Part shown: piece after piece, positions 4,117-7,881 of the stretch
How positions within the stretch are numbered: the stretch's first letter is position 1
Layout of the letters: each line of letters begins with the position of its first letter
Assembly: GCA_024407725.1 (NCBI GenBank)
Contig: JAKSVZ010000023.1
Location: 1 to 7,881 of the forward strand
Length of the DNA stretch: 7,881 nt
Direction: 5' to 3'
Source of the DNA: Opitutales bacterium
GTDB lineage: Bacteria; Verrucomicrobiota; Verrucomicrobiia; Opitutales; UBA9783
The notes under the pieces: model-generated
What the model was told of the DNA's origin: nothing
The model's database searches: none
Seen by the model: only the letters and a program-made list of their open reading frames with translations
Translations under genes and position numbers: made by a program

Positions 4117-4965
4117 TTAGAACGTCCGTCCTACGCCCAAATAGATTTGGTCGGAATGGAAATTCGCCAACTTCGGAATTTCATACCCATAACATTTAGC
4201 ACCAAACATCTGGTGTAATCCGATATGGCGATAACCAACCTCAAACAAGGTTTCAAATTTTTCAGCGCGTACAAACAGACTAAAATTGTACAGCAACGAG
4301 CCGGAATGGACGTACTTACGGTTGCCGCTGATAAGGTCGGTAACCGTAACGCCATTTAATCGCCAATATTCCAAAGTAGTAAACTTGGTACAGACATAAG
4401 CGCCACCGATACCACCGCCGATACCGACTGATAACCAATCTAATATATACTGTTCCCAATAGATATTAGCCTGTGCTCCCGCAATGCGTTGATTTTTAAG
4501 AAAACATGCTCCAATATTAATGCTTCGTATCTGATGCCCAGCTTGATCTCGTATAAGACGACGTTTTTGAAAAGCAAAATCGGGGCGATAAGGCATCATA
4601 ACATTATTCCAATTTGAATCCTCACGTTTGCGGTTCTTTACACTGACATAAGCGCCTAATATTTCTATTTCTAATCCTAAAGCTCCTGTATCGAACACAT
4701 CAAACCGTCCGCCTAAAGCAACCGATAAATTACGGTGATTGCTATATGGAATTTTACCTGATGTACACTCATTGTTTCGTACTATGCAGGGATTTACTAA
4801 GCCAACGGTATTCGGGTAGTTACTGTCCCCTTTACTAAACGTTCCCCAATCATCCCCCTTCAGCTCACCAAACCCCGACCGTACCATGACGTACAAACCA
4901 TAACAGGGGGTATGTATACCTAGCGTTAATGCTAGGGCTAATAATAAACTTATTCTTTTAGTCAT
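4117..4965 (-). CDS. Outer-membrane beta-barrel protein, paralog 1 (OMP_b-brl/Opa-OmpA-like class; exact family not recognised)
   Basis: 282 aa. N-terminal signal peptide MTKRISLLLALALTLGIHTPCYG. Alternating-hydrophobic strands, a glycine-rich GIGGGIGGAY segment, and a C-terminal YLGVGRTF ending in Phe, the typical OMP/BAM signature. Strong paralogy with 6842-7810. Confidence 0.75.
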   Translation of the reverse strand: MTKRISLLLALALTLGIHTPCYGLYVMVRSGFGELKGDDWGTFSKGDSNYPNTVGLVNPCIVRNNECTSGKIPYSNHRNLSVALGGRFDVFDTGALGLEIEILGAYVSVKNRKREDSNWNNVMMPYRPDFAFQKRRLIRDQAGHQIRSINIGACFLKNQRIAGAQANIYWEQYILDWLSVGIGGGIGGAYVCTKFTTLEYWRLNGVTVTDLISGNRKYVHSGSLLYNFSLFVRAEKFETLFEVGYRHIGLHQMFGAKCYGYEIPKLANFHSDQIYLGVGRTF

Positions 4966-5022
4966 TTCCTTATAAGGCGTTTCCTTATAAGGCGTTTCCT
5001 TATAAGGCGTTTCCTTATAAGA
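4963..5022 (-). repeat. Four tandem 15-nt units; the last unit contains the paralog 1 start codon
   Basis: In gene sense the units read TCTTATAAGGAAACG, CCTTATAAGGAAACG, CCTTATAAGGAAACG, CCTTATAAGGAAATG. The last unit differs from consensus only by ACG->ATG. Each unit holds the perfect 10-nt palindrome CCTTATAAGG (9/10 in the distal unit). Confidence 0.95.
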
Positions 5023-5050
5023 TTTTGGGCATTTTTGTGGAAAATCAAGC

Positions 5051-5070
5051 TTTTTTTTTGGGGGTGGGGT
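5051..5070. repeat. Homopolymer block T9 G5 T G4 in the divergent intergenic region
   Basis: Read directly: T9 at 5051-5059, G5 at 5060-5064, T at 5065, G4 at 5066-5069. In paralog 1 sense this reads CCCCACCCCCAAAAAAAAA immediately upstream of a -35-like TTGATT (plus strand 5043-5048). Confidence 0.9.
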
Positions 5071-5089
5071 AGAAGCTACGCCGCTTCTA
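5070..5089. other. Inverted repeat TAGAAGC-TACGCC-GCTTCTA (7-bp stem, 6-nt loop)
   Basis: The arms are exact reverse complements. It abuts the G/T homopolymer block. No U-run follows on either strand, so its function is unknown. Confidence 0.3.
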
Positions 5090-5215
5090 TGGCTAACGGA
5101 TGGGTTAGCAAGGTTCCATTAAGGCAATACGTTCGATCGATAAAGCTTCTTTCATTTTTACTTGCTAGGTATCCGATAGGATGCAAGGATAATACTACTT
5201 AGCGAGGGGCGAGCC

Positions 5216-6841: not shown

Positions 6842-7810
6842 TTAGAACGTCCGACCTACGCCCAAATAGATTTGGTCGGAATGCATACTGGCCAACTTCG
6901 GGATTTCGTACCCGTAGCATTTTGCACCAAACATCTGATGCAAGCCGATATGGCGATAGCCGACTTCGAATAGCGTCTCAAACTTTTCTGCGCGTACAAA
7001 CAGGGTGAAGTTATACAACAATGAGCCGGAATGGACGTACTTACTCCTTCTTATCGGATTATTACCATAACCATACCACATAAAGTGCCGATGGCCGGTA
7101 GGATCAACGCCTATATCCAATACACGCCATCTTTCAAAGGTAGTAAATTTGGTGCAAACATAAGCGCCGCCAAGTCCTCCGCCGATCCCTGCGGATAACC
7201 AATCCAAAATATACTGTTCCCAATAAAAATTGGCCTGTATCCCTGCAATTCGTTGATTTTTTAGATACATTGGAACAATATGAGCCATATGTAACATTCC
7301 CCAATCCGTATATTGCACCCTAAGGAAATCTGGGCGTTCTATATTGATATGATCCATATCATCATAATTGAGTTGAGGCCCTGCTAAGTGAGGTTCAACC
7401 CTATCGCGTTGTTTTCTCCCTAAATTGGCATAGCCGCCGAGGATTTCCACTTCGATCCCTAAAGCCCCTATATCGAAGATATCAAAACGTCCACCGAGCG
7501 CTACCGATAGGTTTTTGTGACCCTTGTACTCAAAGCGTCCTGCGCTACAATTGGTATTGCGTACAAAAGTATTCGATGGGCTAAAAACCACAGTATCTGG
7601 ATCTTCGTGATGGGCACGCGGATCAATCCATTCGGTAGCCTCCCACGTTGGCAACGTACCTTGTTGTTTTTCGAAGCTACCGATATCACCATCTGGCTTT
7701 AGCTCGCCAAAACCACTACGTACCATGACGTACAGACCATAACAGGGGGTGTGGATTCCTAAAGCAATGCTTAGGGCTAATAAAATGCTTACTTTTTTAG
7801 TTGTTCTCAT
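6842..7810 (-). CDS. Outer-membrane beta-barrel protein, paralog 2
   Basis: 322 aa. Signal peptide MRTTKKVSILLALSIALGIHTPCYG. The N-terminal GLYVMVRSGFGELK, the central NLSVALGGRFD, KNQRIAG.QAN.YWEQYILDWLS.GIGGG.GGAYVCTKFTT, and the last 66 aa (63/66 identical) are shared with paralog 1. C-terminal GVGRTF. Confidence 0.75.
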   Translation of the reverse strand: MRTTKKVSILLALSIALGIHTPCYGLYVMVRSGFGELKPDGDIGSFEKQQGTLPTWEATEWIDPRAHHEDPDTVVFSPSNTFVRNTNCSAGRFEYKGHKNLSVALGGRFDIFDIGALGIEVEILGGYANLGRKQRDRVEPHLAGPQLNYDDMDHINIERPDFLRVQYTDWGMLHMAHIVPMYLKNQRIAGIQANFYWEQYILDWLSAGIGGGLGGAYVCTKFTTFERWRVLDIGVDPTGHRHFMWYGYGNNPIRRSKYVHSGSLLYNFTLFVRAEKFETLFEVGYRHIGLHQMFGAKCYGYEIPKLASMHSDQIYLGVGRTF

Positions 7811-7881
7811 ATAAGAAGTACCTATGTAAGAAGTACCTATGTAAGAAGTACCTATGTAAGAAGTACCTATGTAAGAAGTAC
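7804..7881 (-). repeat. At least four perfect tandem 15-nt units plus a degenerate unit containing the paralog 2 start codon; truncated by the window end
   Basis: The plus-strand unit TACCTATGTAAGAAG sits at 7819, 7834, 7849 and 7864, all identical, and a fifth begins at 7879. In gene sense the unit is CTTCTTACATAGGTA. The start-containing unit CTTCTTATATGAGAA (7818->7804) matches it at 11/15. Confidence 0.95.

Follow-up and report, generated by a model that had tools for sequence, protein, structure and literature searches.

Why should the gene for an exported protein carry several copies of its own translation-initiation region in front of its start codon? The question is raised by a 7,881-bp contig of a metagenome-assembled genome (MAG) labelled Opitutales bacterium (locus tags MJ218_), analysed here over its whole length and called the window. 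On its minus strand, the gene MJ218_03905, hereafter paralog 1, is preceded by a tandem array of four 15-nt units that ends with the start codon itself. The array and its gene are laid out as follows.

4117..4965, minus strand: paralog 1 (MJ218_03905), 282 amino acids, beginning MTKRISLLLALALTLGIHTPCYG..., with a signal peptide, ending ...GVGRTF.
4963..5022, minus strand: leader minisatellite of four 15-nt units (from the sequence, Tandem Repeats Finder (TRF), an inverted-repeat finder and homologous arrays).
5022-5008, minus strand: unit 1, TCTTATAAGGAAACG.
5007-4993, minus strand: unit 2, CCTTATAAGGAAACG.
4992-4978, minus strand: unit 3, CCTTATAAGGAAACG.
4977-4963, minus strand: unit 4, CCTTATAAGGAAATG, ending in the real ATG.
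4963..4965, minus strand: start codon of paralog 1 and final codon of unit 4 (N-terminus MTKR(I/V)SLLLAL aligned across 30 members).

Each unit is composed of a 10-nt palindrome, (T/C)CTTATAAGG, which overlaps the box AAGGAA, and of the spacer AAACG, so that AAGGAA stands before each ACG at a spacing typical of a Shine-Dalgarno (SD) sequence. TRF describes the array with period 15, 3.8 copies, 100% match and a score of 114. The perfect palindrome CCTTATAAGG occurs at three sites in the window, all of them inside this array, and the palindromes yield the inverted repeats I1-I3. The frame in phase with the gene reads ...KSYKETPYKETPYKETPYKEM and is open back to a TAA at 5121-5119; codon by codon, it contains no ATG, GTG or TTG over that distance. 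The original prediction, made from the sequence alone, had described four units closed by the real ATG, an iterated initiation region in phase with the gene, and a stop-free upstream frame lacking those three codons, and the sequence agrees with it in every detail. Its proposals that the units pair and that they slip are supported as well; its proposals of ACG starts, of a parity rule and of multiple promoters are not supported.

A second array, overlooked in the original prediction, lies in front of another family gene of the window, at 7812-7881 on the minus strand. It is unrelated in sequence, is likewise built of 15-nt units and is cut by the contig end.

6842..7810, minus strand: paralog 2 (MJ218_03920), 322 amino acids from the ATG at 7810.
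7808..7881, minus strand: second array, at least four copies of GTACTTCTTACATAG, then GTACTTCTTAT-ATG (TRF, inverted-repeat finder).

The second array reads in frame as (GGT ACT TCT TAC ATA)n GGT ACT TCT TAT ATG, with ATA in the upstream units where the last unit has ATG. The two start regions are colinear (7790-7830 versus 4945-4985): the family reads TCT TAT AAG GAA ATG ACT AAA and paralog 2 reads TCT TAT ATG AGA ACA ACT AAA, placing the paralog 2 start two codons (6 nt) upstream of the family start. Specifically, AAG has become ATG, the old ATG has become ACA, AAGGAA is lost, and the N-terminus is MRTTKK... in place of MTKR.... Despite the moved start, the repeated unit again spans positions -11..+4 of its own ATG. 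The GTACTTCTTACATAG unit has no copy in any other of the 24 loci fetched for comparison (given here by L numbers; 163 kb together with the window). Set in homologous register against the CCTTATAAGG-type unit of paralog 1 (type 1), it matches at 8 of 15 positions, mostly in the shared TCTTA(T/C) core. An independent duplication would explain this unit more parsimoniously than descent from a diverged type-1 copy.

Are arrays a habit of the gene family? We read the 5′ flanks of all reachable family genes, a small sample of about 15 distinct loci from about four species-level lineages; contig scans had contributed one related MAG (UBA3869, seven loci) and four short rumen-type contigs. Among 15 distinct core-family loci, 12 carry arrays and three carry a single unit. 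They are listed below with the codon that stands at the ATG position of upstream type-1 units; exact unit numbers are possibly imprecise in short-read MAGs.

Window, paralog 1: four units of CCTTATAAGG type; ACG.
L012: seven units of CCTTATAAGG type; ACG.
L014:10001, identical to L022: three units of CCTTATAAGG type; ACG, last box AAGGGA.
L023: three units of CCTTATAAGG type; ACA.
L024: three units of CCTTATAAGG type; AAG.
L003: four units of CCTTATAAGG type; ACG, ACA, ACA.
L002: at least two units of CCTTATAAGG type; at a contig end.
L010 (MJ218_02040): at least four units with ATG kept in each, (ATGACTTATAAGGAA)n; at a contig end, and visible because the called coding sequence begins inside the array.
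P0020: five units, deduced from the mis-called N-terminus SYKE(TPYKE)x4-M.
L004, L014:1345 and L013: genes with a single unit.
Window, paralog 2: at least five units of the 15-nt GTACTTCTTACATAG type.
L019, identical to L020: two units of the 16-nt type CTTTATAAGGAAATAA; junction after the A of ATG.
L021: 5.5 copies of the 6-nt unit AAAATA.

At least four unrelated unit types therefore occupy one position (15-nt CCTTATAAGG, 15-nt GTACTTCTTACATAG, 16-nt CTTTATAAGGAAATAA and 6-nt AAAATA); position and repetition recur, and sequence does not. Each of the eight perfect tandem repeats that TRF scores at 60 or more in the 163 kb directly adjoins the start codon of a family gene, no comparable perfect repeat was found by TRF in the roughly 150 other genes and spacers of that DNA, and the core motif CTTATAAGGAAA is confined to such arrays among the 24 fetched loci. 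The association is thus far beyond chance. No array is present in the members of a distant subfamily (41% and 34% identity; L005, L015, L012:19358 and L008). In L008, the most distant member at 34% identity, an 11-nt A-rich repeat of 2.5 copies lies across the start codon (2414-2441; GAATAAAAAAT) and may be low-complexity chance.

The genes behind the arrays are predicted to encode outer-membrane proteins. No Pfam family matches paralog 1 or paralog 2, and neither belongs to any curated family. Among 5.8 billion proteins searched there are 64 homologs; the same MAG accounts for 15, and the others are in ENA, JGI and Logan metagenome records; the related MAG UBA3869 also has the family. The family is restricted to this lineage, with at least 15 copies per genome. 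In the alignment, the signal peptide, the strand blocks and the C-terminal ...GVGRTF are conserved and are interrupted by hypervariable, indel-rich segments. The AlphaFold2 model of paralog 1 (predicted local distance difference test, pLDDT, 90.1, predicted template-modelling (TM) score 0.81) is all-beta, with a helix at residues 3-15 followed by long strands. Foldseek matched it in the PDB to the OmpA transmembrane domain, Legionella porin III, OmpT/Pla, Ail and OpcA at the top of the ranking, with modest scores (E 1e-5 to 1e-4, TM 0.3-0.47). The protein thus combines a signal peptide, an all-beta fold and a C-terminal aromatic residue (...GRTF), and we predict from the model a lineage-specific outer-membrane beta-barrel whose variable loops are presumably at the surface. 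Gene callers ran MJ218_03920 (P0025), MJ218_02040 (P0013), P0020 and P0051 through the open array frames, giving the N-termini TSYIG..., EMTYK... and SYKETPYKE... and extending P0020 into a tRNA-Ser gene; these extended N-termini are probably annotation artefacts.

Unit number differs from gene to gene. Across family loci, the type-1 arrays count 1, 2, 3, 3, 3, 4, 4, 5 and 7 units. It also differs at corresponding positions: the lpxI-adjacent locus has four units in the window and seven in L012, which has the same divergent lpxI-DUF5131 neighbours and near-identical DNA at the 5′ end of lpxI. The fmt-adjacent locus has one unit in L013 and three in L024, with a common fmt/DAHP-synthase/phosphorylase 3′ flank, and the tsf-adjacent locus has one type-1 unit in L004 and AAAATA x5.5 in L021. 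The variation of 1-7 units, including 7 versus 4 at one position, is what slippage predicts, as proposed before this analysis. Two hallmarks of a contingency locus are accordingly in place: tandem repeats abut the ATG of predicted outer-membrane beta-barrel genes, and their number varies between orthologous loci (4 vs 7; 1 vs 3). Positional orthologs differ in this way, and two near-identical strain pairs have identical arrays.

The homologous loci also suggest how the arrays arose. The single-copy state, ...AATCTTATAAGGAAATGACTAAAAGA, is preserved in L004 and L014:1345. Duplicating CTTATAAGGAAATGA (about -11..+4), from the CT at -11 to the CT at +5, reproduces the L010 array exactly, and the L010 unit retains the SD-like box, the ATG and the following A. 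Relative to the L010 type, the common type has ATGA changed to ACGC, with ACAC or AAGC as further forms; the change to ACGC drops the upstream ATG and, out of ACTTATAAGG, creates the perfect palindrome CCTTATAAGG. The array would thus have begun as a tandem duplication of the initiation region (-11..+4) of an outer-membrane gene, flanked by CT microhomology, and would expand and contract by slipped-strand mispairing. Later, the upstream copies would have lost their ATG (to ACG, ACA or AAG) and gained the C that completes the 10-nt palindrome. Type-1 arrays differ in the 5-nt spacer only, save for the first palindrome base in L010, and each is nearly homogeneous, a pattern expected from slippage-driven homogenisation together with constraint on the palindrome and SD part. 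The simplest reading of the in-phase 15-nt period is a tolerance filter: if the ATG is part of the duplicated segment, the segment length has to be divisible by three. In the 16-nt array the repeat ends with the A of ATG, so no upstream ATG arises there, and an N-terminal extension, if made, would be lost on removal of the signal peptide.

Where the arrays lie relative to the transcription start bears on what they could do. Upstream of the paralog 1 array, two kinds of sequence follow one another: a leader block common to the family and remnants of other genes.

5023..5059, minus strand: conserved family leader, an A-run, AAGCTTG(C/A)... and about 22 nt more (paralog alignment A2).
5061..5100, minus strand: cassette remnant with a degenerate tRNA-Ser(GGA) 3′ end, a small hairpin (AGAAGC...GCTTCT, 5088-5071) and a C-run (alignment A3).
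5105..5146, minus strand: ymdB 3′-end remnant of 42 nt with a stop codon (alignment A3 against the ymdB 3′ ends of L013 and L014).

The AAGCTTG at 5052-5046 is invariant and keeps a fixed distance to unit 1 in all paralogs, making the leader block, on conservation, the best candidate for a promoter region. The arrays run to the start codon downstream of the conserved AAGCTTGCAA leader block; in general terms, then, the sequences point to a variable-length repeat set between a conserved leader block and the ATG. The corresponding aligned block of L021 reads TTGTCG-17-TAAAAT, its -10 falling at the first repeat unit. Transcription would start at or just before the arrays, which would then form the 5′ leader. 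The idea that each unit holds a promoter of its own fared poorly: a strict sigma-70 scan of the window and L012 found none in the units, whose TATAAG lacks the conserved final T of a -10 element.

The remnants further upstream indicate traffic between loci. Neither ymdB nor a tRNA-Ser gene is present upstream of paralog 1; intact versions precede the paralogs of L013, L014:1345 and L019, with an intact tRNA-Ser(gga) before the matching sequence in L019. The positional ortholog L012 has no ymdB remnant. The alignment shows that the 5′ flank of paralog 1 was copied from other paralog loci, its ymdB part from a ymdB-adjacent one. L022 has its upstream flank (ffh) in common with L014 and its downstream flank (rpe, lptE) in common with L023; L014, L022 and L023 share only one flank each, which puts family genes at synteny breakpoints. 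Furthermore, L012 and L024, from one sample, have about 80 nt upstream of the leader in common and different neighbour genes. The 5′ and 3′ gene ends are conserved at the DNA level (repeat D1), and together with the mosaic flanks this suggests recombination between paralogs.

What would a repeated initiation region do to the RNA? The paralog 1 leader is predicted to fold at -29.2 kcal/mol (z = -4.87; none of 200 shuffles is as stable), which bears out the proposed pairing of the palindromic units. For the paralog 2 leader, the predicted fold does not stand out from those of its shuffles (z = -0.99), and the AAAATA array of L021 has no pairing potential. We computed partition functions for 1-9 units in three upstream contexts. 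For one unit, the probability that the last AAGGAA is unpaired is about 0.05-0.14 overall and about 0.05-0.08 with the whole array transcribed; for two or more units, again with the whole array transcribed, it is below 0.001. The minimum-energy fold of the full-length leader is nested, unit 1 pairing with unit n, and an odd number frees the middle unit, not the last. The original prediction had held that four units can pair completely and that an odd number would leave the last one free; in the nested fold, any array of two or more units has its last AAGGAA paired.

A parity effect arises only when the 5′ end lies 4-6 nt inside unit 1, and its sign is then reversed: for even n, AAGGAA is unpaired with probability 0.10-0.14, as open as with one unit, and for odd n of at least 3 with probability below 0.001. 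Such a 5′ end is about where transcription would be expected to start if CAAAAT/CAGAAT just upstream were a -10. A translational switch of this kind, with transcription from inside unit 1, even numbers open, odd numbers (at least 3) buried and slippage toggling each of the 15 or more outer-membrane paralogs independently, is an unlikely reading. If true, it would provide combinatorial surface variation to an uncultured rumen Opitutales that is possibly intracellular, and would do so with duplicated initiation sites and not with classical short repeats.

The codon that had been read as a near-cognate start shows little sign of being one. It is ACA in L023 and L003, AAG in L024, ATG in L010 and ATA in paralog 2, and the 16- and 6-nt periods of other arrays also undercut the idea. 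From this comparison, the ACG position looks like a variable loop or spacer with no visible constraint other than rarely being ATG. The AAGGAA box is a different matter. A 4-mer SD core occurs at -16..-4 in 14 of 80 genes (window, L012, L013, L014, L019 and L021), about as often as by chance, and the clearest matches precede the genes for groES, groEL and ribosomal proteins S2, L21 and L27. The lineage thus appears to be largely SD-independent, and the AAGGAA of the family stands out, marking it as one of the few SD-bearing, presumably highly expressed gene sets. Since SD sequences are rarely used, leader accessibility should dominate initiation.

Searched against Rfam, the window returned no family at the gathering threshold; the sole match, suhB/mmgR at 4990-5066 on the plus strand, antisense to the array, scores 24 bits against a threshold of 41 (E = 0.14) and is regarded as chance. 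Also on the antisense strand, pairs of units score as terminator-like hairpins (window 4968-5007, plus strand; L012 9914-9998, minus strand) that precede a T-rich tail (CGTTTCCTTA).

We propose that the arrays act as a per-gene expression dial, a contingency-type locus in a variable outer-membrane family in which copy number governs output and, for the type-1 unit, pairing between units hides the initiation region; we give this reading a probability of roughly 0.5. It builds on the observed anatomy, recurrence, copy-number differences and folding energetics, and takes the array to be transcribed and expression to depend on copy number. Unit number would set the length and structure of the 5′ leader and hence the output of each paralog independently of its sisters. 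In arrays of the CCTTATAAGG unit, pairing would hide AAGGAA and the AUG, leaving one unit open and two or more closed; transcription from inside unit 1 would instead make even numbers open and odd numbers closed. The product class, a surface beta-barrel with variable loops, is one in which such dials are known, and by analogy supports the proposal.

Several points weigh against this expression dial. The hairpin lever is not general, because the paralog 2 leader is unexceptional and AAAATA cannot pair; it appears limited to the palindromic unit type, and the other arrays would need another lever, for example leader length. The strict scan found no sigma-70-type promoter in or around the array (window and L012), which leaves the placement of the array with respect to the transcription start a guess. 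Near-identical strain pairs have identical arrays (L014 and L022, three units; L019 and L020, two units); switching is therefore not extremely fast, and 15-nt units slip far less readily than the classical 1-7-nt units of contingency loci. Finally, three arrays sit at contig ends, and these breaks may reflect the conserved gene ends shared by paralogs and not heterogeneity.

The identical arrays of near-identical strains would also suit a neutral origin, which we regard as unlikely yet worth serious consideration: initiation regions would be hot spots of microhomology-mediated duplication and slippage, gene conversion would spread the products, and these would be tolerated, without any regulatory role, since cleavage removes the signal peptide and units that stay in frame or lack an ATG are harmless. 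Microhomology does lie at the unit borders (CT...CT in type 1, G.AC in paralog 2), copying between loci is evident in the ymdB and tRNA-Ser remnants and in the L012/L024 flanks, and the unit counts favour no parity or number. A mutational by-product does not readily explain why at least four independent unit types occur at this exact spot and none in about 150 other intergenic regions or genes, or why the palindrome stays invariant while the spacer varies. Nor is an absence of effect easily squared with the predicted burial of the initiation region in arrays of at least two palindromic units, given near-absent SD usage. The invariant palindrome, perfect and recurring every 15 bp, could alternatively be a DNA site, the CCTTATAAGG copies serving as iterated operators of a dimeric regulator or as -10-like elements, so that copy number sets transcription. 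The resemblance of TATAAG to a -10 element fits this idea, as does L021, where the repeat itself supplies the TAAAAT at proper spacing from TTGTCG. We nevertheless consider action at the DNA level improbable. The leaders of the window and L012 yielded no sigma-70-type promoter. With a period of 15 bp, or about 1.4 helical turns, adjacent sites fall on different faces of the helix, a poor arrangement for cooperative binding. The palindrome is missing from the paralog 2 unit and from the 16-nt and 6-nt units, the window and locus neighbours examined include no linked regulator gene, and the only conserved promoter-like block is upstream of the array.

There is very little to recommend the model of the original prediction, in which near-cognate ACG sites yield TPYKE-extended isoforms and an odd or even hairpin register frees the true start. 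The frame is open and in phase, AAGGAA stands at SD-like spacing before each ACG, the L010 units each carry a real ATG, and extensions would be removed with the signal peptide; against this stand the replacement of the codon by ACA, AAG or ATA in other arrays, the existence of 16- and 6-nt periods, and the folding results, in which full-length leaders at equilibrium show no parity effect and the effect, where present, has the opposite sign. That short-read assembly collapsed or expanded the repeat, making the array or its copy number unreal, is a concern for a 7.9-kb MAG contig when three arrays lie at contig ends, and it is nonetheless hardly tenable: arrays of the same unit are internal to contigs of 34-108 kb from independent samples and assemblers, and at two loci the same arrays were recovered from two samples. 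That the array exists is secure; the uncertainty is confined to the exact unit number in any one MAG.

How does the proposed dial compare with known systems? In the opa genes of Neisseria, CTCTT pentamers lie inside the signal-peptide coding sequence and switch every gene copy independently by frameshift. The Opitutales family resembles opa as a multigene family of small outer-membrane beta-barrels with conserved ends, hypervariable loops and a repeat at the 5′ end of each copy. Frameshift switching of the opa type does not fit, as the 15-nt units are upstream of the ATG and so is the 16-nt array. Because the units precede the ATG and 15 nt preserve the frame, a switch must act on initiation and not on the reading frame. 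Leader hairpins that sequester the SD sequence are familiar from translational riboregulators and RNA thermometers, and the predicted 10-bp stems likewise include the AAGG of the SD-like box beside the AUG. Unlike in those systems, the anti-SD partner is another copy of the unit, and occlusion would be set by copy number and not by temperature or ligand.

In Haemophilus influenzae, the 7-nt repeats of hmw1A are transcribed in the 5′-untranslated region, form a hairpin and set expression by repeat number (PMC12721329). By analogy, hmw1A/hmw2A come closest in working principle, the Opitutales array being presumed to be transcribed: there, too, paralogous surface-protein genes have a repeat, (ATCTTTC)n, that separates the promoter region from the start codon. 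The hairpin itself is predicted for the paralog 1 array (z = -4.87) and not for paralog 2 (z = -0.99) or the non-pairing AAAATA array. Unlike the 7-nt hmw repeat, the Opitutales units measure 15 nt (also 16 and 6), are copies of the initiation region and abut the ATG, and pairing is predicted between neighbouring palindromic units where hmw uses a distal G-rich arm. In family architecture, the nearest counterparts are vlhA and opa. Each vlhA (pMGA) gene of Mycoplasma gallisepticum has one (GAA)n tract with conserved flanks, whose repeat number varies among paralogs and orthologs (PMC6258824). There, the GAA tract is situated about 40 nt before the transcription start and affects transcription, and expression requires exactly 12 repeats. 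Both systems are large families of variable surface proteins, occur in host-associated bacteria and have an upstream repeat for each gene. A repeat upstream of the core promoter, as in vlhA, was not found; the Opitutales arrays lie 3′ of the conserved leader block and extend to the start codon. The array is thus of none of the hmw, vlhA and opa types, for its unit copies the initiation module itself and is not a short simple repeat.

Our literature search turned up no publication about this lineage, nor any about arrays of duplicated SD and start-codon segments, and we know of no described programmed surface variation system of this kind in Verrucomicrobiota. If copy number controls output, the arrays would represent a new construction of contingency locus, in which the repeated unit is a 15-nt in-frame ribosome-binding and start-codon module. 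Such module repeats would have arisen independently, with different sequences, before most members of a large surface-protein family, and would be evidence of programmed surface variation in a host-associated Verrucomicrobiota lineage known only from metagenomes. They would also offer a simple rule linking unit number to translation in an organism that barely uses SD sequences. In practical terms, the arrays and conserved gene ends break assemblies and cause mis-annotated N-termini, and copy number would be a convenient strain marker.

Around the two paralogs, the window holds sufS/sufU-like genes and genes for a PQ-loop protein, thiamine pyrophosphokinase, lpxI and DUF5131. One homolog comes from a sample that we take to belong to the cattle-rumen project PRJEB21624. 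In L023, a gene for a TLC-family ATP/ADP translocase (PF03219; 1319-2851) lies directly upstream of the family gene, which hints that this Opitutales lineage may be intracellular or an energy parasite.

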